From Yuukianura sp. NJ FZ-2021 (Eukaryota), in the NCBI GenBank assembly GCA_046563655.1, contig CM102287.1, forward strand, positions 6,696,001 to 6,760,000: a DNA stretch of 64,000 nucleotides, read 5' to 3'. Below the pieces are notes generated by a model, which ran no database searches, was not told where the DNA came from, and saw nothing but the letters and a program-made list of their open reading frames with translations. This document shows positions 8,073 to 26,385 of the stretch, piece by piece; the stretch's first letter is position 1, and every line of letters starts with the position of its first letter. The position numbers and the translations under genes were made by a program.

Positions 8073-8408
8073 TTATTAAGTAGCTTTAGCTACTATATAA
8101 AAGTATTTTTGTCCGTCATCACGTTTTCCGTCATATCCCCATAACGAAAGCCGGTCCGTCATCGCGTTTTCCGTCATGACATAGGGAAAACCATTGTAAA
8201 ATGGTGAAAACATCCGCACAATTATCTCGGAAACTACTGGATCGATTTCGTTCCGGTTTTCACCATTTAACAGCTAATGACCCGGGTGAGGTCAAGTTGC
8301 AATATCATTCCGGTCAGTGACCTCCTTCCGGGTCAAAATCAATTTCAAAGGTCAAGTGAATTGCAGATGGAGGAAGTCTGGGTAGAAAAAACTCTGCTTG
8401 TGGGACTG
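8073..8408 (+). mobile_element. Left-end copy of the HINE/DINE-1-like element (subTIR, two ~41-bp GTCCGTC repeat units, core sequence)
   Basis: Near-identical to 15421-15934 (e.g. ATTATCTCGGAAACTACTGGATCGAT and GGTCAAGTGAATTGCAGATGGAGGAAGTCTGGGTAGAAAAAACTCTGCTTGTGGGACTG). Identity stops after GTGGGACTG. Confidence 0.8.
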
Positions 8409-8562: not shown

Positions 8563-9855
8563 TCAATTGAAATTGCTAATGAAGTGGAACTGAAAATTGT
8601 CAAGTTTAGTTTCACCCAGATTGATCCAACTTTGCCAAGTTACAGCATCTCTCCATTGCCTCCGATTCCGTTCCGTATTGGGAACAAGAGCTTGGAGTCC
8701 TGCATCTATATCTGCAGCAGCTTCGACTGCAAATTTTGGAATGCCTTGAGAATCCATTGATACGTCGTAAATTTTTTGGCCATAACGTGGGCAGTAATCT
8801 ACAAAAACATCAGCGTTCAATTGCGCCGTCTCTAATGGCCCAATAAAGACATAACGCGGAGCCAGCCCTTCACGAGTTACAGTGTCAGCGTCGGCTAGAC
8901 TTAGAACTCTATCTTTGACGAGGTTCCAAGTTGCGTTGAGAATTGCATATCTAAAAAATTAACTAAAGGTTAAATTACTCATATTTTGCGTTCTAAATTG
9001 TAGTAATAGTAGAAGGCACTTACTGAACTCGCGGTTGAGCAAAACCAGCAATTTCTTTGAATTACGACCGGAGTTTGGCCAAGGTCAGTCAGAAGTTGAC
9101 GAATTTTAAAGGTGACCTCGGGTTTTGTTTTGGGATTCGGAACCAACTAGACCAGCCGAATAAAGTACGACGGATTAATCTGCATTATAAATAACAATAA
9201 CTTTAGTTTCCAACTAAAAAATAGTAATAAGGCATTCTTTCTTTACTGGGTGAACAATCAGACTTTGCGTTTGAATTGAACGGTCATTTACAAATTTCGA
9301 TGAAGGAATGGCCGAACTGGAGCTGCCAATAATAGCCTGTGTGTGTTCCCAACCTTGTTGAACACTTCGTCAATGTTAACGAAGACTGAACGCTTGACGT
9401 CTAGGCGTTCCGGATTACATTCTTGGATATACGTGGCGTCCCGGAGGGTGTCCTCAAGAGTAGAATAACCTTAGATATGATGGTAAAAAAAATATTCTAA
9501 GGTTAAAACGATTTTTCTTACATTTTTTGGAGGCGTTCGTTCACTTGAAATCTTACTTGAAATGAGCTCGGATTGCATCTTTGATGAAAGTATCTTCGAG
9601 TTCTTCAGAGTCCCATCTTCCTCCAGTTTTTTCCGAATGTCTGTCAATGCCAAATTTACTACAACGGGATCCGTGTCATAAAGTCTGACCTGATGACCTA
9701 CAGAGGCAAAGAGCATTGCCCAAGACTTTCCAATAAGACCGCTATAATAAGATCAAACAATACAAAATGCAATAAGTTAATATCGCTAAAAAGCATCATC
9801 AGTCACTCAGCGATACTTACCTCCCGAGAATGGCTACGATCTCTTTGCTCTCCAT
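8563..9855 (-). pseudogene. CRYL1: Lambda-crystallin homolog / L-gulonate 3-dehydrogenase pseudogene retaining 4 introns
   Basis: Exons 9855-9821, 9741-9557, 9469-9247, 9179-9024 and 8950-~8563 give [34 protein letters not shown]...QECNPERLDVKRSVF...IIGSSSSAIPSSKF...HPINPSYFIRLV*LVP...GLAPRYVFIGPLETAQLNA. Lesions: frameshift in a (CA)n run at ~9337-9345, in-frame TAG at 9149-9147 replacing the E of LVELVP, and a second frameshift at ~9055-9062. Confidence 0.9.
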
Positions 9856-10550: not shown

Positions 10551-10720
10551 TCGTTGTGATGTCGTCGGTCGCCATTTTGAAATCCCGCAGTGATTCTTAG
10601 AAACCCGGCCTGGGTAGACGTACTTTACGTTCCTCGCAAAAAAAACCGCAAAAGTTTCTCTTTTTTTTTGCAACACCGTGCAAATTTTGTTTGTGCGGAA
10701 CAATTTGTGAGCGACCAGTG

Positions 10721-11413
10721 TCAATGGACAAGGACGATGGATGACTTGGACATACTCACGGTGGACAAACTGTAGAGTTCAAGGGCCCTCACTGTTACCT
10801 GGATATTTCCGAAGACTTCAAGACCCGACGTCGGTAAGTTGCCAATTTTTTTTTTGTTTAGCTTATCCTTTCCTATCGCAAATCGCAATGTTTGACTTCA
10901 ACTTTTGCGAAGTCAATCTCTGCTTGACCAATCTTCAATGGACAAGGAAGGACGACCTGGGATTCCCTAACAGTAACAGTACTCACCGTGGACATACTAC
11001 AGAGCTCAAGCGCCAGGACTGGAATGTGGATATTTGCGAAAACCACCACACGGCGGCAAGTTTTTGGCAACTTCATTTCAGCTTCTCTTTTCCTATCACA
11101 ATCGCAATGTTTGACTTCTTTTGCGAAGTCAATCTCTGCTTGACCAATCTTCAATGGACAAGGAAGGATGACCTAGGACACCTTAAGTACTAACTGTGGA
11201 CAACCTACAGAGCTCAAGTGCCAGGACTGGAATGTGGATATTTGCGAAAACTATGAAAACCCACCAGACGTCGGCAAGTTTTTGGCAACTGTTGATTTCA
11301 TTCAGCTTCTCTTTTCCTATCGCAATCGCAATGTGTTTGCGTTCTTTTTGTGACGTCAATCTCTGCTTGCTTGACCAATCTTCAATGGACAAGGAAGGAT
11401 GACCTAGGACACC
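10721..11413. repeat. Tandem repeat, ~215-230-bp unit, three copies plus a partial fourth
   Basis: TCAATGGACAAGGA recurs at 10721, 10935, 11151 and 11382. The units share GTCAATCTCTGCTTG, GGAATGTGGATATTTGCGAA and GGCAAGTTTTTGGCAACT blocks. Confidence 0.9.
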
Positions 11414-12096
11414 AAAGGCTCTTTTGATAAGTTTTTCGCTCTGTTTCCTCTTACGTTTCACATCTCCCACGGTAGATTCAAAATTTCACGCCAAGTTTTC
11501 TGCCATTGTTACCGACTCCTGCAAAAATTTGAGGCGATGTTCACTCCAAGTCTGTCGCTCAGTTCAAGGCCTCTGGACTCTGCCAAATCCGCTACTTTGT
11601 TCAACAGTTCTTTATCGACTCGGCGCAGAGAATCCAAGTGGAAGTTGACAACAGCCGAGAGACATTTGATTGCAAGTTCAGCGTAAACGGGAGAGTGGAC
11701 AAGTACTTGCTCCAGTGCGGGAATCATTTGATGAACGTAGGAAACCGGAAGTAGCATAATGCTTTGTTCCAACTCTATTGCCTTGATAGTACTTAAACTT
11801 AGCACTTTGGTCATGAACTCATTCAGTGTCTCAGCACCGTAGGCTTGCAGGAGAGGGTGTTCATCAATCATCTTTGAATACATCAAGGAGCTTCGATGAG
11901 TTTGTCAGCCTGTTCAGACCAAATTCGAAATTTTCAAAAAATAATCTTTTCTAAAAGTTGCAAACTTTGGAAATTACCATTTTTTCAATATCAGCTGTTT
12001 GTAGACTTGGTAGATTTGGATTTTTAGTGATGGCTTCTTTCTCCATGTCATCTTCCCTCTCTCGTTCTCGTTCATCTTTTTCCAAACACGAATTAA
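11414..12096 (-). pseudogene. WDR3: WDR3/Utp12 (SSU processome) C-terminal gene fragment, degraded, with one retained intron
   Basis: LIRVWKK.../DEREREREDDMEKE...IEKM, intron 11977-11910 (GT-AG), then ADKLIEA (frameshift) HPLLQAYGAETLNEFMTKVLS...IKAIELEQSIMLLPVSYVHQMI...ELAIKCLSAVVNFH...DRLGVNIA...KRKRKQSEKLIKRAF. This matches the Utp12 domain and basic tail of WDR3. Several frameshifts and stops; WD40 repeats absent. Confidence 0.8.
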
Positions 12097-12612: not shown

Positions 12613-14298
12613 AAAAAATCTGGAGTTTGTTTGGTAATTTTGGTTCAAAAAATAGGAAAATGAAGTTTAAATTTTTGACTAAACCTTCTCTGTACCATCA
12701 CTTAGGAACACATACTAAATCCCACAACCGAAACCTACGGAATCACTTCTTGGCGAATGTGTCCATGCACAGATCGTTTCAAAGTCTCAATCCGCATTGG
12801 TTCGGGGATGTGGTAAAAAACTTAGTCCCTGTGTCTCTTGCTTGAATGCGCAGCAGAAGTGTTATTATTAGAGTTAACGAGACTTGACTTGACATTTAAC
12901 GTGACTTTCGGTTTTTTTCATATCGCAGCAGAAGTGTTATTATTAGAGTTAACGAGACTTGATTTGACATTTAACGTGAACTTTCGGTTTTTTTCATATA
13001 CACTGGAACATACGGCATTGCAGTAGATTGGGCGCGAAGACGGATCGAGGCTTGCGAGTAGCTGTTCAGGTGACACAGGGCAGGGAGGGGTGTGAATCTC
13101 TCTCGGTAAGTCCGGAGTGTGCCAGTCCGAGTGAACTGGGGCCGGAATCTCGAGCGTAGTCATTGACTAGTCCTCTGTCGTGTGGATCTTCGTGTATATA
13201 AAAAATCTGGAGTTTGTTTCGTAATTTTGGTTCAAAAAATTGTAAAATGAACTTTAAATTTTTGACTAAACCTTCTCTGTACCATCACTTAGGAACACAT
13301 ACTAAATCCCACAACCGAAACCTACGGAATCACTTCTTGGCGAATGTGTCCATGCACAGATCGTTTCAAAGTCTCAATCCGCATTGGTTCGGGGATGTGG
13401 TAAAAAACTTAGTCCCTGTGTCTCTTGCTTGAATGCGCAGCAGAAGTGTTATTATTTGAGTTAACGAGACTTGACTTGACATTTAACGTGACTTTCGGTT
13501 TTTTTCATATCGCAGCAGAAGTGTTATTATTAGAGTTAACGAGACTTGACTTGACATTTAACGTGACTTTCGGTTTTTTTCATATACACTGGAACATACG
13601 GCATTGCAGTAGATTGGGCGCGAAGACGGATCGAGGCTTGCAAGTAGCTGTTCAGGTGACACAGGGCAGGGAGGGGTGTGAATCTCTCTCGGTAAGTCCG
13701 GAGTGTGCCAGTCCGAGTGAACTGGGGCCGGAATCTCGAGCGTAGTCATTGACTAATCCTCTGTCGTATGGATCTTTGTGTATATAAAAAAAATCTGGAG
13801 TTTGTTTCGTAATTTTGGTTCAAAAAATTGTAAAATGAACTTTAAATTTTTGACTAAACCTTCTCTGTACCATCACTTAGGAACACATACTAAATCCCAC
13901 AACCGAAACCTACGGAATCACTTCTTGGCGAATGTGTCCATGCACAGATCGTTTCAAAGTCTCAATCCGCATTGGTTCGGGGATGTGGTAAAAAACTTAG
14001 TCCCTGTGTCTCTTGCTTGAATGCGCAGCAGAAGTGTTATTATTTGAGTTAACGAGACTTGACTTGACATTTAACGTGACTTTCGGTTTTTTTTCATATA
14101 CACTGGAACATACGGCATTGCAGTAGATTGGGCGCGAAGACGGATCGAGGCTTGCGAGTAGCTGTTCAGGTGACACAGGGCAGGGAGGGGTGTGAATCTC
14201 TCTCGGTAAGTCCGGAGTGTGCCAGTCCGAGTGAACTGGGGCCGGAATCTCGAGCGTAGTCATTGACTAATCCTCTGTCGTATGGATCTTCGTGTATA
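12613..14298. repeat. Near-identical tandem repeat, ~587-bp unit, three copies
   Basis: AAACCTTCTCTGTACC at 12681, 13268 and 13856 (spacing 587 and 588). Units 1 and 2 contain an internal ~75-bp duplication that is single in unit 3. Confidence 0.95.
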
Positions 14299-15086
14299 TT
14301 TAACGGGACGTTCGGCTTTTATTAATTGACTTTTCTTTTGTTGAATTGATCTTCGTGTATATTTAACGGGACTTTCGGTTTTTTTCTTAAACGCTAGAAC
14401 ATACGGCAGTAGATTGGGCGCGACGACGGATGAGGCTTGCAAGTAGCTGTTCAGGTGGCACGGGGCAAAGAGGAGTGCGAATCTCTCTTGGTGAGACCGG
14501 TGTGCGCCAGTTCGAGTGAATGAGGCCGGAATCCCGAGCGTAGTCATTGACTTATCTATTGTTGTATGGATCTTGTGTATTAACGGGACTTTCGGTTTTT
14601 TTTAATTGACTTATCTTTTGTTGAATTGTTCTTCGTGTATATTTAACGGGCTTGAACGCTAGAACATACGGCAGTAGATTGGGCGCGACGACGGATGAGG
14701 CTTGCAAGTAGCTGTTCAGGTGGCACGGGGCAAAGAGGGGTGCGAATCTCTCTTGGTGAGACCGGTGTGCGCCAGTTCGAGTGAATGAGGCCGGAATCCC
14801 GAGCGTAGTCATTGACTTATCTATTGTTGTATGGATCTTGTGTATTAACGGGACTTTCGGTTTTTTCTAATTGACTTATCTTTTGTTGAGTTGTTCTTCG
14901 TGTATATTTAACGGGACTTTCGGTTTTTTTTCCTAAACGCTAGAACATACGGCAGTAGATTGGGCGCGAGGACGGATGGATCTTGTGTATATTTAACGGG
15001 ACTTTCGGTTTTTTTTAATTGATTATCTTTTGTTGTATGGGTCTTCGTGTATTTTTAATGTGACTTTCGGTTTTTTTATACGCTAG
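14262..15086. repeat. Related tandem array of ~265-285-bp units (two ~60-bp AT-rich subunits plus a ~150-bp GC-rich module)
   Basis: Repeated GTGTATATTTAACGGGACTTTCGGTTTTTT subunits alternate with GAACATACGGCAGTAGATTGGGCGCG...CGAGCGTAGTC modules at ~14397, ~14662 and (partial) ~14943. The module is a diverged version of one present in each 587-bp unit. Confidence 0.9.
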
Positions 15087-15155
15087 AGGGACCACACCCT
15101 GCACAACTACCAGAAACTTAAATCTGGTATGTTATGCACAAAGGGACCATTGCAC

Positions 15156-15207
15156 TACGGTCTACCGTGTTGCTCGGTACTGATGACGACAGCAGTCAGA
15201 AACCGTA
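15156..15207 (+). ncRNA. Type III hammerhead ribozyme (predicted self-cleavage after GUC, C15162)
   Basis: TACGG-TC | TACCG-tgttgct-CGGTA | CTGATGA | C-GAC-agca-GTC-A | GAAA-CCGTA. Core CUGAUGA, GAAA and UH are intact. Stem III has 6 perfect pairs, stem I has 5 perfect pairs, stem II has 3 pairs closed by a C-A mismatch. Confidence 0.85.
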
Positions 15208-15420
15208 TTAACTTGAGATTCTTTGCTGTTCTATTTAAGAATTTTCAGTGACATAATTGGTAAGTCTGAAAGGTGGACAGGGTGAAATTGGAAATCGTTT
15301 TTAGAAGTTTAGTTTCTGGAAAACTGAATTTTACCGATTTCTAACATTTTGTCAGAAAAAGAAAAAAACAAATTGTTATTTTTAGTTACAATTTGGAGAA
15401 TGAAGAAAAAGAAACAACAG

Positions 15421-16234
15421 TTATTAAGTAGCTTTAGCTAAAAGTATTTTTGTCCGTCATCACGTTTTCCGTCATATCCCCATAAGAAAAGCCGGTCCGT
15501 CATCGCGTTTTCCGTCATGGCAAAGGGAACTCCTTTGGTCTTCAAGTTCTCTGTCATGTCCATAAGATAGGCCGGTTCGTCATCACGTTCTCTGTCATGT
15601 CCATAAGATAGGCCGGTCTGTCATCACGTTCTCTGTCATGTCCATAAGATAGGCCGGTCCGTCATCGCGTTTTCCGTCATGACATAGGGAAAAATATTGT
15701 AAAATGGTGAAAACATCTGCACAATTATCTCGGAAACTACTGGATCGATCTCGTTCCGGTTTTCACCATTTAACAGCTAATGACCCGGGTGAGGTCAAGC
15801 TTGCAATATCATTCCGGTCAGTGACCTCCTTCCGGGTTAAAATCAATTTCCTTCCGGGTCAAAATCAATTTCAAAGGTCAAGTGAATTGCAGATGGAGGA
15901 AGTCTGGGTAGAAAAAACTCTGCTTGTGGGACTGGAAAGGTAAAAGGCATGGGAGTTGGTTCTCTGCTTTTAGCAAAAAATCAACTACGCAGCAGTTGAC
16001 CAACACACTCATGCACTGTCCAGTGCCCATTCCTTCTGTTGTTGCTTTATCCGGATCCAACCTCTTCACATCTTTGCTTGACCTCACCCCCATTTCCACC
16101 GGGGTGGGGGGTGAGAAGGTGGGGGGAGCACCGCGCCACTCCCCCTGAGGGCTCAACAGATTACTCCAGCTTGTTAAAAAAACACTTAAATGCTAAAGCT
16201 ACTTTTTTATGTGCGGTTTACAACCGGTTTATTT
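15421..16234 (+). mobile_element. Full-length HINE/DINE-1-like non-autonomous Helentron, about 810 bp
   Basis: 13-bp subterminal inverted repeats at 15426-15438 and 16192-16204, about six ~41-bp GTC(C/T)GTCATCACGTT tandem units (15452-15685), a short terminal hairpin (16214-16226) and T-rich ends without a TSD. This is the established DINE-1/HINE architecture. Confidence 0.85.
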
Positions 16235-16787: not shown

Positions 16788-19478
16788 ATGTTAGGATTGC
16801 AGTCCTACTCTCGTTCCTCTGATTCTGAATCCAGCGAAGCCGAAGTATCGGAAGGAGAAACAGAACGAGGAAATGTAACACCAAGTTGTTTACCCGAAGA
16901 CCTTCCGGACCATCTGAAACCTTTACCCTCGAACGAATCAACATCTATTATGTCGAAAGTGTTGATTGTCGCCGCGCCGGATGTGGTGGTTAATGTGAGT
17001 ACACAAACGAACCTAATTTGAAGTACAGATTCTGCACTACCCTATCGATCCTAAATGTAAAAATGTGCTGGCTAGTATTCATAGTTTAAACAGCCGATTG
17101 ATTTGTTCTTTTATTCAGAAATCCCTGGATCCACTCCGGCATATTGACCCAAAGACGAAGGAGTTATCGTATAACCCCAGATATGACGAATTGTTTGCCC
17201 CCGTTATGGGACCATCGGATCCTAACAAAACACGACAGCAAAGTGCTCAGAGAAATATGTTGTCTGGATATGTGGAAAAGGCTCATCTTAACGAGTTTGA
17301 GTTTGAAAACCAAAGACGCACATTCAGTAGTTACGGTAAGAATTGGACTTTGGATTCATTTTGTGGCTACATTTTAGTATTTAGTATCGTATTGAATACA
17401 ACTACACTAACCTCTTTTTCGCAGGATATGCTCTTGATCCTTCTGTGCAGTCTGCCAGTGCTGCTGGTGAAACCACAAAATTGATCGGTACAAATCCGGA
17501 TGCAAATAAAACAGAATTAAAAACAGTGTTTGAATCTATACCAAAAAGACCGAAGGACAAGAGGAAGCGAGAGAAAAATGATAAGCCTGAAGATATTGAA
17601 GGTTTTATTGGACCGTGGGGCCGATTCGAAAACGAAATGACTATCGCCAAGCCCTCCGAAGTGAGTTTTTTTTACTCTTCCGTCTTCCGTAGAATGCCTT
17701 TCTTTCTTGTTGTAGCCCGGCATTTCACCAAACCTTAAATACTCCTCAAATCTACATTTCATTAGTAAATGATAGCTTTATACTACGGGGACTTACTGAG
17801 GATCCTTGAGGAACCTTTCGGTTAATTTTTATTTTTCGACTGTATTCATTCACAATTTTACGCCTTTTTATCTCATTTGATTCTGTAGGAGGAAGCAGCG
17901 GAACTGGAAGTAATTTTGTCTAAACGTAAAAGGAGAGGGAAGAACGTTGACGAGAAACCCATTGAAGAGAAGAGTATTCTTCACATTAAAAATCCACTGG
18001 ATTACCAAGGCAGATCATTCATGGTTCCGCCGACGGACGTTGGTGTGAATCTCAAATCTCGAGACCCACCTTCCAAATGCTTCATTCCGAAAAACCTTAT
18101 ACACACTTACCAAGGCCATTCGAAAGGCGTGGCTGCAATTCGGTGGTTTCCTAAGTCTGCGCATCTGTTGCTTTCCGCTGGAATGGATTCAAGAGTCAAG
18201 GTACATTTACTACTATATTTTAGCACGCTGAATCCATCCGCTGCCCTTTACATAATTTAACTCTTTCAACGCTTCAATCGAAACTTAACCGACATCAAAA
18301 GTATTGCTTTTTTGCCTTTCTTCGTAGCTTTGGGAGGTGTACGGTGATCGTCGGTGCCTCCAAACCTACGTCGGACACAAGTTGGCTGTACGCGACATCA
18401 ACTTCAATAACGATGGAACACGGTTCCTATCGGCTGGTAAAACGAATGTTACTGCTTTTCGGTTTAACTAGATTTTAACTGCTGCGCCTTTATTTGGAAA
18501 ATTTAGGTTACGACCGATTCATAAAGCTTTGGGATACCGAAAAGGGCGAGTGTATTTCGCGTTTCACGAATCGTAAAGTCGCGTACTGTGTCAAGTTCCA
18601 TCCTGAAGAGGAAAAACAACATCTGTTCGTTGCTGGCACTTCAGACAAAAAGATTGTTTGTGTAAGGCCTCTCTCTCTCTCAGTAATCAATAACAATTAT
18701 GTATTACGTGTCAAGCCAATGCCTTTTTGATCTTTTTAGTGGGATACGAGAAGTGGAGACATTGTACAGGAATATGATCGTCATTTGGGTGCAGTGAATA
18801 CTATTACCTTTGTCGATGATAATCGTCGTTTTGTATCGACTTCAGATGACAAAAGTTTGCGAGTTTGGGAATGGTGAGTAGCACCACCAAATAAGTCCAT
18901 AAGTATTTGAAATTATGAAGCATGCAGTGCAGATTCTCATTCAAATTCGAATCTCAATGTTTCAGGGATATTCCAGTAGACATGAAGTACATCGCTGACC
19001 CAAGTATGCACAGTATGCCAGCGGTAACGCTTGCACCCAATCAAAAGTGGCTCGCATGCCAAAGCATGGACAACAAGGTGATGATTTTTACGGCGTTGAA
19101 CCGGTTCAAGCTTCATCGAAAGAAAACTTTCAAAGGGCACATGGTCGCTGGTTATGCGTGTCAACTAGACTTTTCTCCTGACATGAGGTAAGGGCTATCG
19201 GGATTGCTAATTTTTGTTACAAAGTTATTATAAGTTACCCGGTAGTAAGGAAATCGTATCTTTCTCGTATCATGTAATATTGTCGATTTTTTTTCCACAG
19301 CTACCTAATTTCTGGTGATGCGGATGGAAAGGTGTTTGTCTGGGATTGGAAGACAACGAGAGTATTCAGCAAATGGAAAGCGCACGATAATACCTGTATC
19401 TCGGTACTCTGGCATCCTCACGAAACGTCCAAGATCATGTCAGCCGGATGGGACGGACTAATAAAACTTTGGGACTAA
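16788..19478 (+). CDS. CDC40: Pre-mRNA-processing factor 17 (WD40 second-step splicing factor), 589 aa
   Basis: Exons 16788-16994, 17119-17335, 17425-17660, 17889-18200, 18328-18436, 18507-18661, 18740-18873, 18966-19187 and 19301-19478. All GT-AG, 1770 nt in frame. Motifs [57 protein letters not shown] and WHPHETSK...[10 protein letters not shown]. Confidence 0.97.
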
Positions 19479-20951
19479 ATTTTCGATTGTTTAAAATAAT
19501 GATAACTTATATTCGGCAAATTGATTTGTACAGGAGAGGTGAAACAGCCCTGTTGCCAGCAGGAGTAGGGAAACAATAATCTTCATATCTGTCAATACCT
19601 AATATCTTTTTTTTTTATAATACATTAGAGTCAAATTTTCTTTAAGGTTAGCCTATACCCAAGCTTCGGCGAAGAACCGAATGCTTGTTCGGAATCAGCG
19701 TACAAGATACTATATTGAATGTATTTAGAAAGGTTTTTAATAAGTATTAAATCGATGCGCTATTTTGCCGAATTTGCTCTAGAATGATTCATCATCAGCA
19801 AGTGACACTTTCTCCAATAACTCCAATACGACTCTAACATTTTTGCCGAGCCTTAACCTACGATATACTCTGTTTGTTCACAATCCTACAAATTTTCATG
19901 TATTGATTTTTTAAAATCCTTACTACCTAATATTCGAAATATAATTTGAAAATTTTGATTTAGAAATTCTAAACAGACGCTTGACATTTTATTGAGCAGC
20001 GGGGGTGCTACTTCAGGAGCTTTAAGAAGTTATTTAACGGTACCGAGAGCTGGCGCTCACTGTGCAGAAAATGAACGACGTTTACTTGTAACTTATTCAA
20101 GCTTCGGCTTCAATTCAATGCTTCCAAAAAGCTGTGAGCTCTTGTCAGAAGCTCTTTTTTGCCATTGAAGTCTCAAAACTTTGAGGGTTTGAGGGGCTTT
20201 GGAGTGCGCAGACTTAGCAGAAACTCTTCCCTTCAAAACAACATTTCTTCAACAGACCTCGAAACATTTTCCACTAGAAGAACAGTGATCCTCGCAGTCC
20301 CAGTCCTCAGTCTGTTCCTCAACTTTGTCTTGGAGGGGTCACTTTTTACTGAAAAGTAGTCAAAACATTGCCAAAGACTTCGGAAGTACAAAAGACTTTG
20401 AAAAATTTCAAAGCATTTTAAACCGAATTCAGTAGACAACCAAAGTTCTTCGGAAATTTTCCCAATCGGCTTCAACAATATCCTCAATTTTGAACATTTC
20501 AAGAACTAAAGTGTTATTGTACTGAAAAATTTGTTACAAGTTATGAATAAAAACAATAGTTTTTAAGGAAAGTGAAAGTCAACACTTTTAGTGAAGTCGT
20601 AAAGCCGAAATTAATTGATTGCTAAAAGGATCGAGGTCATCAACCTCATTTCTACTCTGCGTTTTCACTTAATTTCCGTTTTATCAGATTCCATGACACT
20701 TTGGTTCGTTTGAAATAAGTGCCTAAACTGGTGACTCCAAAGTGACACGCCAAATTGAATCTGAAAAGTAAAAACCTTACAACTATTTTGGGGAAACTGG
20801 ACGCCAACGCGGTGAAAGTGCAAAATGACACTGTGGCATCCGAAGCCCAGAGAAAAGTCAATGCTGTAACAATACCCAGAATATGTTGGAGTCTGTGTCA
20901 GTGGCATATCTACTCATAAAAGCCCAAATTGAAGAAAGAAACGACGAAAAT

Positions 20952-23900
20952 ATGGGCCCTAAAATTGGAACCTACTCGACACTACTCCTGACCATTGCAA
21001 GTATTTGGTGGGACGGAGGCGGAAGAAAAGTCACGGCCAATTTGGACATTGAAGGTTGCCATTTAATTGAATCTGCAGCAAGTCATCGTCAACAGCATAA
21101 ATTAGGACATCATCATTCTACTAGTGTTGGTGATTCAGTTGGACTTGACTATACCGGAAACATGGACAGTTTGAAAGTGGCTTCTCAGGTGAAAGCTGAG
21201 ACTAATGACGAGGATTACGTTCTGTGTCACATCAGAACGATGCAGACTGAACTAGACTTTGAGAATCTGACAATCCATTTGCCATTTCCCATGGAAAAGG
21301 CTACTGTTCTCAAGGTCGTTTGTAATGACCTTTTGTTCTTTGAATCTGTTCTGAGTCCAGGTCAATTGAGTGGATTCACTGAAGTGTATGACCTGTCAAT
21401 TGAAAAATGCAAGCTCAAAATTGTTACGGGAGATGCATTTCTTGGAATGGATCATCTCAAACGTCTCAAAATCAATACAGGTAATTCAGACTGGGCAGCC
21501 CGTTCACTGGAACTGTCCAGTACAGCGTTCGAAACCGTGCCATCGCTCCAAAGTCTGGATCTAGGCTACAATCATATGTGGTCCCTCCCAGAAAAACTTT
21601 TGTGTCAACTAGAGTCATTGACTGTACTTAATTTGACTCATAACCTTTTGAGTGACATTGACGACCTAGGATTCCCTTCTCCGTCAACGATTCCTCAGGG
21701 AAGAAAAAACAACAACGGAATCCTTAGAAATAAGGCTGGAATTGATGGACGGGAATTCGTGACATCGTCTGCGTGTTTATCAGAGCTGAAACAATTGGAT
21801 ATTTCATACAACACGCTACGACGACTCGGATCTCGTCGGTTTGACAAGATGAAGCGCCTAGAAGATCTGCGTCTCCAACACAACTGGTTGGAAGAGTTAG
21901 ACGACGAAGCTTTGACCGGCCTCGGAGGACTCAAAAGTTTGAATATTTCGTCAAATCGGTTGGTAGCCCTCCCCTCAACTCTGTTCCAAAATTCGAAGCA
22001 ATTACGAAACATTGATTTGCGAAATAATTCACTGTCAGCGCTTTCACCCAACCTTTTCTCTGGACTCGAGTGGCTCGTTGTACTCGACCTAAGTAGAAAT
22101 TCTCTATCAAGCCAATGGATTACAGTCGAAGCTTTCCGGGGACTCGTACGACTCGTCATTCTCAATTTGTCTCATAACCAACTGACACACTTGACCCCAG
22201 CGACGTTCAGTGACCTCTACACTCTGCAGGTTCTGGATCTTGGAAACAATCTAATTTCATCAATTGCTGACTCCACTTTTATGCCCATGAGCAATCTTCA
22301 TTCGCTCAATTTGGCTCGCAATAAGCTCGTGTCCATTTCATCCAAGATGTTCAACGGTCTCTACGTCCTACACAAACTAAGTTTGGACTTTAATCAACTG
22401 ACGACGATTGAGGATGGCTCAATGAAAAATTGCACGAGCCTAAGCGATTTAGGACTCGTCGGGAACATGTTGACGAAGGTTCCCGAAGCTCTCCGAGGTC
22501 TCCAGTACTTGAAAACGCTGGATCTAGGTAAGATTTTAAAAATTTTCAACAGTTTACAAAAGTTCCATTTTCATTCTTTTAAAATGCCGCATTTCCCAGC
22601 TTCCGCCATAGCTCAATTTTTTCGACGAATTTGTTGGTTTTAAGAGAAAGTCGAGTGCTGACATTTTTTTTCCTTTTTAGGAGAAAATCGAATCTCTACT
22701 CTTACAAACGAGTCGTTCATGGGAATGAGTCAATTATATGGAATTCGTCTAGTTGCGAATCAACTGGAGGAGATTCCCAAAGGAGTCTGTGACCCAATTA
22801 GTGACCTCCGCGTCTTCAATGTTGCTCAGAACAAAATCAATAGAGTTGCCTCAGGAGCCTTTGTGTCATGTCCAGAATTGAGAGTACTTCGACTTGACTC
22901 CAATTCCCTGGACATCCTTCCGTCGAACTTGGTTCCTCAATTACCAAACCTCCTCTGGCTCAACGTTTCGCAAAATCAGATAGGACGAGCCGACTACTCA
23001 TTACTACCTTCTTCGCTTGAGTGGTTCGGTAAGAAAATTATTTTATCATTCCTTTGGAACATACCACAAGAACACGTCGATTCAGAAAGCATTTCGAGAA
23101 AAACAAAATTTAATTTCTTATGTAAGAAATACTCTGTGTGATATCAGAATTAGTGAGACTCAAAGAGAGTTTTAGTAATTTATTAGCTTTCATAACGCAT
23201 ATTTCATTCAAACTTATTACATTCATCCTAAAAGTTGCCGAAAAATTGGTTGCGCTCTTTTTGCGTAAAAGAAGAAGAAAGAAAAACTTGTTTTTGACTC
23301 ACCGTTTACTTTCAGTTGGTTCTTACCGGAATGCAATAAAAAATGGAAGAAAAAAATACACAGTATAGAAATGAAAACCAAACAACAATTTTTCCTTTTC
23401 ATGTTTCAGACGTGAGTCATAATCAATTGGTGTCTCTCGGTGGAGCATGGAATCCTGGAAGTGGAGCCACCGTGGGAAAAAATGGGCCGCCACTTTCTCC
23501 AGTCCATGTCCATCATCCCAATCATCATAATGCCAAACTCCGCGTCGTAGATGCTTCCCATAACCTTTTGACCCAACTTGACCTCAATGGAGTTCCACCA
23601 GCACTGGATAAACTAGTGGTCAGCTACAACCGTCTCACAAAAATTCTGCCAGATACGTTTAGTCGCTCGACTCATTTGCGTCGTGTGGATTTGATTGGAA
23701 ATCAATTGGAAACGATTCCGTTGTCAGCGCTCAGATTCCAACAAGTTCCGCTGTCGAAACCGCTTCCTGAATTCTTTCTCGGTAAATTTCAATTTTCGAG
23801 TTTACATTTCTGAACTTTTCTTAACGTTTGCGCATGCGCCAAATGGAAACTGAAGAATGCAGAGTCTGAGAGTGAAAAGGAAAGGAGAAAGTGAAATTGA

Positions 23901-26385
23901 AGAATTTTTTTTAAATTCTAGGTGGAAACCCATTTCTGTGTGACTGTGACATGGAGTATTTGATGCGTATAACCCAACTCAGTGCGACACGTCAATATCC
24001 CGTCGTACTGGATTTGGATGCCATCATATGTCGCCTCACTTACTCTCGTTCCGTGTCCCACATTCCACTTCCGGAAATGAAGCCTCAAAACTTCTTGTGT
24101 CCTTACACCTTCCACTGTTTTCAAACGTGTCAGTGCTGCGAATTCGACGCTTGTGGTAAGTCGACTTACTTCATTTTTTGTTTATGATTTACTAAACTAA
24201 CAAATTCAAAAGCAAAAGTTGTAAAAGAAAAACTGGTTCATTTCATGTTCATGTTATTAATCAAAGCCAACACCAAGTTTAAATTAACTCACAATGCTGA
24301 AATTGTGCCAAAGGCAGTTTTGTAAATCTCGCTAAAGTGGTTGCATTGCTTTGAAACTCATAATCTCCATAAATGTTTACTTTCAATGCGCCAACGCGAC
24401 GACGTCGCTTTTCGGCAATATGGAATATGCCATTTTGATTTTAATTTTCAGACTGCTCCATGACATGTCCGAACAATTGTACTTGCTACCACGGCGATTC
24501 CTGGACAGCCAACGTCGTGGACTGTGCCAATACCAACTTGACCTCCGTTCCAGCCCGAATCCCAATGGACTCAACGTCTGTAAACTTGGACGGAAATTGG
24601 ATCCCAGTAGTGAAGAGCCACAGTTTTATTGGACGTAAAACTTTGAGAAGCCTTTTCCTCAATTCCAGTCGCATCGAGACAATAAGCAATAAATCTTTTA
24701 ATGGACTTCAGTCACTGGAATACCTTCATCTGGAACGGAATCTCCTCCGACGTCTCCTCGGTTACGAATTTGATCATCTCAATAAGTTGAGAGAGCTCTA
24801 TCTCCAAGATAATTTGATCGAAACCATTAGTAACTCTACGTTTCTATCTCTCAAAGAACTGGAAATTTTAAGACTCGACGGAAATCGACTCTCAGTTTTT
24901 ACTGTTTGGCAACTGAGTCTAAATCCATACTTGGTTGAAATCGGACTTGGACGTAACTCATGGAACTGCGACTGTCATTACCTTCATCAGCTTAATGGAT
25001 GGGTCACAGACAATCAAAAGAAGGTCATTGACATGAGAGATATTCGTTGCGTGTGGAACACAACAAAGGAGGTTGGACCGCATTTGTTAGACTACAACTC
25101 GACATGCGGTAGTTCATGGGCCCTTATCCAAGGGGGTTTGGAACGCTTTGACCTTGGTGGACTACTTCCCCTTGTCCTGGGGCTAGCAGTTACCATTGTA
25201 CTTGTGCTTCTTGTCATCATAATCTGCATATGCAGAGACAACATTCGGATTTGGTTACACAAGCAGTTTGGACTCAGGCTGTGTTCAGGACGTGATGATT
25301 TTAGTGACAGTGAAAAATCTTTTGACGCCTACCTTCTCTATAGTCAAAAAGATGAAGAATTTGTGACGACACGAGTAGCTGATGAACTTGAGACGGGTGA
25401 CAACTATCGTTTTTGTCTCCACTACAGAGACTTACTGTCCGAAGGAAGCAATGATCTCAAAGAGGTCATGACGAGTGCGCTTGACAGTTCCAAAAGTTTG
25501 GTCATATTCTTGTCCAGAAACTTGTTCCAGGGAGAGTGGACAAGCGGAGAGTACCGAGCCGGGTTTCATGCTCTCCTCAAATCCAGTGCTAAAAAACTTC
25601 CAGAGGGGGTCAAGAGTATTCTAGTGGTGTTCATTGAGCCAATACCAGAAGAAGAAATGACTGCAGACATTCTCTCGTGGCTCAGAAGTTCAACCAATAC
25701 TGTCACCCTGAAGTGGGCAGACAAAAAGTTTTGGTCAAAGTTCAAATATGCTTTGCCGGATCCATCAGTATGTCATTACCATTCGAACATTACGAGTCAA
25801 ACGACGACTTCTTCTGCAGCGTCTAGTGAACGTGCTTCTAGTGGCCTCAAATATTACACTGCAACTGGAGGTGACCCCAACTTGACCTTGGAAGAGTCAG
25901 GTCAAAAGTACTGGCCTGCGCAGGCCCAGTCGAACTTCATGGCTCTACCGCCAAAGTATGCGTCACATGGCCAGGGATACCGCTACAGCAGTGACACCAT
26001 TCCACAAGATGACGACGACCATGAACTTCCGTCGTTTCTGTTTCAACCAAACGCCAAGTCCCCAGTACCGCTCGGAAACTTTTCAAAAAGCTGTTTGCGC
26101 AAGTCCAGTTCCAGTGGAACCCCCGGGGGTGAAAGTTACTTGAGTCTCGAGGGGGAACATGTTTACTCGACCTTGGACCCCCCTAGTCCTCCCGCCAAAA
26201 TTCAACTGCCTAATGGATACACCTACTCCCCTGGTCCCACCCAGCAGCAGTGGCACCCTGCCCCACCCAAAACCCCACTGCCCCTCAACTTCTCGTCCCC
26301 CAAAGCAAAAGGCCCGTCAAGGAGAAAGTCAAGTAAAGAAAGCTCGGCCCCACCCGGTGGGACAGTTCAAACGTACTTGGTCTAA
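20952..26385 (+). CDS. Long Toll receptor (18-wheeler/Toll-7-like; LRR ectodomain, TM, TIR), about 1487 aa
   Basis: Exons 20952-22527, 22681-23028, 23410-23781, 23922-24155 and 24452-26385. All introns GT-AG, phase 1; 4464 nt in frame. Signal peptide, many LRRs, GGNPFLCDC...[25 protein letters not shown] cysteine cluster, TM helix, TIR (FDAYLLYS...CLHYRD...FWSKFKYALP), EHVYSTL and C-terminal QTYLV. Confidence 0.95.

Follow-up and report, generated by a model that had tools for sequence, protein, structure and literature searches.

Layout of the hammerhead motif at 15156 to 15207

The window analysed here is the whole 64,000-nt (64-kb) stretch of Yuukianura sp. NJ FZ-2021 DNA between positions 6,696,001 and 6,760,000 of contig CM102287.1 (forward strand; assembly GCA_046563655.1). 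On its plus strand, positions 15156 to 15207 comprise 52 nt in which all sequence elements of a type III hammerhead ribozyme of compact form are present, as read directly from the sequence and recovered by a motif scan. This motif sits in a 335-bp segment between a tandem array (12613 to 15085) and a HINE-like non-autonomous element (15421 to approximately 16250 on the plus strand), and further copies of this segment exist elsewhere in the genome. Between the end of the array and the motif lie 71 bp, and the HINE-like element starts at about 15421, 214 bp downstream of it, in agreement with the approximately 70 and 215 bp given in an initial annotation of this DNA.

Read from its 5′ end, the motif begins with one strand of stem III and U16.1 (15156 to 15161), which pair with 15202 to 15207; UACGG (15156 to 15160) stands opposite CCGUA (15203 to 15207), and the U15161-A15202 pair adds a sixth. 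C17 at 15162 ends a GUC triplet, and its position relative to the core places the predicted cleavage between 15162 and 15163. Stem I with its loop (15163 to 15179) consists of 5 bp between UACCG (15163 to 15167) and CGGUA (15175 to 15179), capped by loop 1, UGUUGCU (15168 to 15174), and is followed by the core segment CUGAUGA (C3 to A9; 15180 to 15186). Stem II and loop 2 occupy 15187 to 15198: the strands CGAC (15187 to 15190) and GUCA (15195 to 15198) enclose the loop AGCA (15191 to 15194) and form three Watson-Crick pairs (G-C, A-U, and C-G) behind a C-A mismatch at 10.1-11.1. The second core segment, GAAA (G12, A13, A14, and A15.1), completes the motif together with the 3′ strand of stem III (15199 to 15207). 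Stems I and II are loop-capped and stem III is open, which is the type III topology, and the nucleotides of the core (C3 U4 G5 A6 N7 G8 A9, G12 A13 A14, the A15.1-U16.1 pair, and H17) are all those of the definition in the available passages of PMC3088659, according to which a 2-bp stem II is also common among natural hammerheads. This reading bears out the initial annotation, which had described the complete core, the GUC triplet, stems I and III, both loops, and the opposition of C15187 and A15198 in stem II, and had assigned the motif to type III by its open stem III.

Both loops conform to motifs of natural hammerheads. In the passages of PMC2632901 (Dufour et al.) that treat them, a loop 1 of the form UNmYN is found in 17 of 27 natural hammerheads, a loop 2 of the form RNnA in 22, and the two together in 16; a pair forms between the U that opens loop 1 and the A that ends loop 2, and the next-to-last pyrimidine of loop 1 touches loop 2. 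UGUUGCU fits UNmYN with m = 4 (U1, G2, and C6), and AGCA fits RNnA with n = 2. The 5′ U and 3′ A of this loop-loop contact, to which the initial annotation had drawn attention, are thus both present and match the published motifs. The helix geometry is likewise near that of the usual type III hammerhead as outlined in passages of PMC7936874 (De la Pena et al.), in which a 6- to 8-nt loop caps a helix I of 6 bp and a 4-nt loop caps a helix II of 4 bp. The present motif has a 7-nt loop on a helix I of 5 bp and a 4-nt loop on a helix II of four positions.

Rarity of the motif

The motif scan covered both strands of the 64 kb and called for CUGANGA, GAAA, a UH site, stems I and III of at least 4 pairs each, and a stem II of at least 3 with a mispair at 10.1-11.1 allowed. 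The segment at 15156 to 15207 was its sole match. First-order Markov sequence with the window as its model (60 Mb) contained 10 loose matches, a single one of which had stems I and III of at least 5 pairs; none of the 10 had GUC and none was compact. Composition-matched random sequence (345 Mb) yielded two matches with stems I and III of at least 5 pairs, neither of them compact. A comparable motif is hence expected about once per 30 to 85 Mb of double-stranded genome, or approximately 0.001 to 0.002 times per window, and the compact form with both loop motifs far less often. The present motif also has features that the random scans did not demand, namely, the GUC triplet, loop lengths of 7 nt (loop 1) and 4 nt (loop 2), and the two loop motifs. 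Since the source scan spans very many windows, in which rare chance motifs are to be expected, evidence independent of the motif itself is needed.

Related copies in public DNA runs

The block that contains the motif was traced to five public runs, all of them of DNA and none on record as RNA. Runs X1 to X4 come from one sample of organism A, probably the source of the window itself, and run X5 comes from organism B and a different study. Logan contigs of X1, X2, X3, and X5 were placed on 15080 to 15451 at a likeness of at least 80%, which gave 32, 19, 42, and 4 contigs, respectively, with likeness ranging from at least 99% down to less than 90%. None of the listed pieces reaches 1 kb, in runs whose contigs extend to as much as 403 kb, as is expected of a multi-copy repeat. 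Paralogous copies, for which the initial annotation had proposed to search, are found in public DNA contigs.

Summed contig depth, which is no copy number, peaks over a conserved multi-copy block at 15138 to 15207 (plus strand) made up of an 18-nt leader and the hammerhead motif. In X1, it rises from 747 at 15080 to 15105 to 10,399 at 15158 to 15170 and falls to 1,624 at 15210 to 15222 and to 628 at 15314 to 15365. The profile recurs in X2 (approximately 140 to 165 upstream, a peak of 692, and approximately 230 at 15210 to 15222) and in X3 (approximately 1,300 upstream, a peak of 5,668, and 324 further downstream). Counted per run, at least 12 contigs lose their likeness to the window directly after 15206/15207, the last pair of stem III, whereas at least 8 begin to match at 15138 and at least 4 at 15108. 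Judged by these contigs, no part of the repeat family is better preserved than the hammerhead block, and the 3′ border of this block coincides with the end of the putative ribozyme. The suggestion in the initial annotation that the motif marks the terminus of an unrecognised retroelement is in line with this border as far as a terminus is concerned; the open reading frames (ORFs) of the window that were scanned contain no reverse transcriptase or GIY-YIG domain.

In organism B, the block is nearly unchanged: a 929-nt contig spans 15080 to 15213, differs there from the window by the substitutions C15111A and U15174C and by an insertion of one base, and is unlike the window past 15213. A second contig from this organism covers only 15138 to 15206.

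Within the 52 nt, substitutions are listed at 11 sites. The loop variants carried by most contigs of X1 are U15170A (5 contigs), U15174C (8), U15174A (1), and A15191G (8). U15170A and U15174C/A fall on positions 3 and 7 of loop 1, which are free N positions of the published motif (U15174C is also the change seen in organism B), and A15191G keeps the purine of loop 2. In stem III, A15157G and A15207G keep wobble pairs (G-U and U-G). The commonest variants therefore appear to respect known ribozyme constraints, and the pattern among the copies would fit transposon-borne hammerheads rather than a chance motif. Small insertions after 15186, 15188, and 15190 reach 4 to 16% of the depth and, in our reading, seem to restore no canonical stem II.

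One contig of X3 joins the 3′ half of the hammerhead motif (from 15178) to unrelated upstream sequence, in which 11 nt are identical to part of the subterminal repeat of the HINE-like element; this hints that HINE-like elements and hammerhead copies may meet at other loci too. BLAST found no second copy of 15080 to 15460 in the 64-kb window, and scans with a stem I/core pattern returned no match in collections of genome contigs and viral contigs. A metagenome scan with the leader and core pattern hit one locus, within a bacterial-looking coding region, which lacks the hammerhead stems and was set aside as a chance match.

Leader and flanking elements

Immediately upstream of the motif lies a leader motif, GGGACCA..TGCAC, with two plus-strand copies (15088 to 15104 and 15143 to 15155), where shuffled sequences gave an expectation of 0 per window. 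The copies are 55 nt apart and the motif occurs nowhere else in the window; the second copy adjoins stem III, and the first is followed by a 7-bp hairpin at 15108 to 15129. When the upstream leader copy was compared as a possible decayed second hammerhead, the pairwise alignment was ambiguous. Similar GGACCA-type motifs stand upstream of hammerhead blocks in the loose ends of other contigs.

The tandem array upstream (12613 to 15085; 2.47 kb) starts with three units of 587/588 bp and continues with units of 265 bp that share a GC-richer core of 130 nt; a short repeated segment that includes a T run closes every unit. Within the bounds of the array, the scan detected no hammerhead motif, and searches found no Rfam match at the gathering threshold and no tRNA. 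At E values of up to 1, Rfam returned for 14300 to 15100 only two weak CrcZ rows, at 12 bits against a threshold of 95, and the fold of the array unit is unremarkable (z = −0.57), so that the array was rejected as a candidate RNA gene.

Downstream, the element at 15421 to approximately 16250 is HINE-like by structure; this assignment is set by features and not by family sequence, and its 3′ end is approximate. HINEs are non-autonomous Helentrons, and their hallmarks, according to passages of PMC4067079 (Thomas et al.), are subterminal inverted repeats (subTIRs) of 12 to 15 bp and a short palindrome near the 3′ end, along with T-rich ends and, often, central tandem repeats. The element has perfect 13-bp subTIRs (15426 to 15438 on the plus strand and 16192 to 16204 on the minus strand; 0.05 expected by chance), 5.6 central repeats of 41 bp at 15452 to 15681, and a 3′ palindrome, CGGTT/AACCG, at 16214 to 16226. 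A second HINE-like copy at 8073 to 8408 comprises the 5′ part only, with fewer central repeats and with no matching 3′ repeat within the window. The initial annotation had taken the motif to lie inside a Helentron-bounded block. Only the element at 15421 to approximately 16250 has both subTIRs, host-like exons (3HCDH_N and Utp12) lie between the two copies, and no Rep/helicase ORF was found among the ORFs of the window that were scanned, so that such a block lacks support as a mobile unit.

Covariance models, predicted folding, and the 10.1-11.1 mismatch

Several results weigh against an active ribozyme at this site, one of them being the absence of a pair at 10.1-11.1, where C15187 faces A15198. 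In the relevant passages of PMC3088659 (Perreault et al.), 10.1-11.1 is the most conserved hammerhead pair after A15.1-U16.1, and candidates mispaired there were discarded. Among the copies listed, no other letter reaches a share of 5% or more at 15187 or 15198, and for this reason the C-A opposition looks family-wide. The initial annotation had suggested that this copy may be weakened by it; with the same letters seen across the listed copies, recent damage to the present copy does not account for it, and either the family tolerates the mismatch or its spread did not depend on cleavage.

Covariance models, which the initial annotation had named as a check, gave no significant score. Rfam at gathering thresholds returned no match in the whole window. 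Permissive searches of 271 nt and of 56 nt around the motif produced Hammerhead_II as their sole hammerhead row, with 16.6 bits (E = 0.64) and 16.5 bits (E = 0.15), respectively, against a threshold of 37. They contained no Hammerhead_3 row; because only the best of overlapping clan members is reported, the type III model scored no better than Hammerhead_II.

Folding predictions point in the same direction. Nearest-neighbour energies give −11.5 kcal/mol for the 52-mer in its hammerhead fold and −14.8 kcal/mol for the minimum-energy fold; the latter keeps stems I and III and replaces stem II by pairing CUGAU (15180 to 15184) with GUCAG (15195 to 15199). When the 18-nt leader is added (15138 to 15207), the optimum becomes a two-hairpin fold of −19.0 kcal/mol, and all hammerhead pairs then have probabilities of at most 0.009. 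Further competing pairings join the 5′ strand of stem III to the 5′ strand of stem I and the 3′ strand of stem I to the 3′ strand of stem III. The four stem strands (UACGG, UACCG, CGGUA, and CCGUA) are mutually near-complementary, which renders the two-hairpin alternative more stable. The pair probability of stem II lies between 0.003 and 0.009. Nearest-neighbour folding ignores the non-canonical pairs of the core and the loop-loop contact; even allowing for this, stem II is objectively weak in these models.

The copies, too, hold unfavourable observations. G15182A, which turns core G5 into A, occurs in four contigs of X1, and stem-breaking changes comprise C15197G (5 contigs), U15196G, and single-contig changes at 15175 to 15177. 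For several of these core and stem changes, the depth equals that of a single divergent contig, which differs from the window 18 times within 15108 to 15227; they probably belong to that decayed copy. X5 is the sole independent run, X1 to X3 not being independent of the window, and the copies were compared by tables of differences.

Comparison with known hammerhead systems

Reviews, including PMC7761336 in the passages at hand, place type I hammerheads in animals, within non-long terminal repeat (non-LTR) retrozymes and Penelope-like elements, and type III hammerheads in plants, viroids, and satellites. The initial annotation had drawn the same division, and these passages agree with it.

The type III hammerheads of plant viroids, satellites, and LTR retrozymes (sTRSV(+), CChMVd; Rfam Hammerhead_3) share with the present motif the topology, the full core, and the GUC site. 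The loop format is that of sTRSV(+), for which PMC2632901 gives the loops UGUGCUU and GUGA: both have a heptaloop and a tetraloop, and loop 1 opens with UG and carries a pyrimidine in its next-to-last position. As in classical plant type III hammerheads, tetraloop 2 has a purine first and an A last, and stem II has four positions. The differences from that class are an arthropod host, a stem I of 5 bp instead of the typical 6, the C-A opposition at 10.1-11.1, and the lack of an Rfam score at threshold. In addition, a plant LTR retrozyme has two type III hammerheads in LTRs 600 to 1000 bp apart, with a primer-binding site, a polypurine tract, and a 4-bp target site duplication. Here, the motif is single in 64 kb, with no second one 600 to 1000 bp away, and no LTR-like direct repeat was seen around it, so that the two hammerheads in direct LTRs of a plant-type element are not present.

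Termite and dipteran genomic type III hammerheads, as portrayed in passages of PMC7936874, resemble the present case in being isolated motifs in arthropod DNA without recognisable ORFs nearby. They are nevertheless atypical, with a long helix I that has an internal loop and an extra hairpin, a helix II of 6 bp, and a Watson-Crick pseudoknot between the loops, whereas the motif at 15156 to 15207 is compact with viroid-like loops. The same passages relate them to the hammerheads of hepatitis delta virus-like circular RNAs.

Metazoan non-LTR retrozymes and Penelope-like elements are alike in carrying a hammerhead within a multi-copy animal repeat, where it is thought to process the RNA of the element. 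Theirs is of type I, often with a weak helix III, and occurs in each short tandem unit or in pseudo-LTRs; here, the motif is of type III with a helix III of six pairs, and the neighbouring array is devoid of hammerheads. The arrangement of a metazoan non-LTR retrozyme, in which tandem units of approximately 150 to 450 bp each contain a type I hammerhead, is therefore not that of the 587- and 265-bp units of this locus.

Concerning precedents, the passages of PMC7761336 mention type III hammerhead elements in insects, citing a 2010 study, and a proposed exchange of such elements between insects or bacteria and plants. Similar motifs in insects may thus already have been described by the 2010 study. 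In the limited collection of full texts that we searched, we found neither an account of an arthropod repeat family with a type III hammerhead of compact, viroid-like style nor a link between hammerheads and Helentrons.

Interpretation and alternative explanations

The analysis establishes that the motif is present, that it seldom arises by chance, that its loops fit, that it is multi-copy, and how it is conserved. We lean, by a little more than an even balance, towards a working, possibly slow, type III hammerhead module, with predicted activity, that belongs to an uncharacterised mobile element of an arthropod. The motif would form the conserved core module of a family of interspersed repeats, most likely of mobile elements, and is probably a new member of the type III hammerhead class. 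Its present status is that of a candidate of a well-known ribozyme class.

We infer transcription, cleavage, and a role in the life cycle of the element along the following lines. Upon transcription of the plus strand, the three stems, of which stem II is short, would bring the CUGAUGA and GAAA parts of the core together. Loop 1, through its 5′ U and next-to-last pyrimidine, would dock on loop 2, as in the hammerheads of viroids, satellites, and plant retrozymes. The RNA could then cut itself after C15162 and so trim the transcript of the element, with the C-A opposition at 10.1-11.1 probably making the ribozyme slow or condition-dependent. Since this locus has a single hammerhead copy, it would by itself release no unit-length or circular RNA.

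A less probable explanation is that the block is a hammerhead-derived relic whose founder was already inactive, owing to the C-A opposition and the weak stem II, and which spread without RNA self-cleavage, be it by DNA transposition, by capture by another element, or by segmental duplication. It would account for a mismatch at the most conserved stem pair (in the account of PMC3088659 available) with no alternative letter among the listed copies, for the insignificant Rfam score, for a stem II disfavoured in predicted folding, for the core-dead G15182A variants, and for a location amid DNA-transposon-like repeats. A dead passenger should not, however, be the best-kept part of a repeat, and yet it is in the hammerhead block that depth and likeness are highest, while its flanks vary; the common variants, moreover, fall on free loop positions and not on the core. 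Also to be set against a relic are passages of PMC3088659 in which a U-U opposition at 10.1-11.1 is among the natural variants tested for activity, U-U having earlier been shown to allow more cleavage than other mispairs.

Unlikely in our judgement is a chance look-alike, that is, a block conserved for some other reason whose match to a hammerhead is coincidental, such as a terminal or hairpin signal of a mobile element that acts as DNA or a small structured RNA with two hairpins. The greater stability of the two-hairpin fold favours it (z = −2.0 for the −19.0 kcal/mol structure; 9 of 200 shuffles were as good), as do the many copies that end at 15206/15207 in the way a transposon end would, the lack of covariance-model support, and the very large number of windows scanned, somewhere among which rare chance motifs are expected. 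Against coincidence stand the random sequences, in which stems I and III of at least 5 pairs arose once in 60 Mb and twice in 345 Mb and never in compact form, and the additional match of the GUC site and of both loop motifs, beyond anything that those scans required.

That the ribozyme processes a transcript reading through from the 2.5-kb tandem array, as raised in the initial annotation, is highly improbable: proximity on the same DNA is what speaks for it, nothing links the ribozyme to an array transcript, the array units are without hammerheads, every one of them ends in a T run, their fold and Rfam results (two weak CrcZ rows, no tRNA) are unremarkable, and the sequence upstream of the hammerhead block differs in its other copies, so that association with the array is not a trait of the family.

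A working module in an arthropod repeat family would have consequences beyond this locus. A compact viroid-like type III hammerhead in such a family would widen the host range of the architecture, point to a new ribozyme-bearing mobile element, and offer a natural test case for variability at 10.1-11.1. If the ribozyme is active and some loci have two copies, this family would be to animals what retrozymes are to plants and could produce circular RNAs. It would also bear on the exchange of type III elements between insects or bacteria and plants to which PMC7761336 alludes in the passages cited above. The full claim, an arthropod mobile-element family built on a classical viroid- or retrozyme-style type III hammerhead that tolerates C-A at the normally invariant 10.1-11.1 position, is quite unlikely and is advanced here as a speculation.

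Other features of the window

The arthropod origin of the window was judged from three gene fragments, namely, the exon-like ORFs, an MFS ORF, and a Toll-like receptor gene. Exon-like ORFs with 3HCDH_N, Utp12, and WD40 domains are located at 9474 to 9752 (minus strand), 11512 to 11904 (minus strand), and 17889 to 19188 (plus strand); a protein search found no relatives of the Utp12 exon. A 216-bp tandem repeat at 10860 to 11417 (2.5 copies, 83% matches) overlaps an ORF of 160 amino acids (10711 to 11190) for which there was no Pfam match. An MFS ORF had one weak match, at 28% identity, to a spider protein. Finally, a Toll-like receptor gene extends on the plus strand from 20829 to 26385. It comprises four LRR/TIR ORFs, three of them in one frame, with short stop-containing stretches in between, a layout that would be consistent with short introns. 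Among named proteins, it is most similar to Toll-6/Tollo-like proteins of insects and crustaceans, with at best approximately 42% identity over most of the length.

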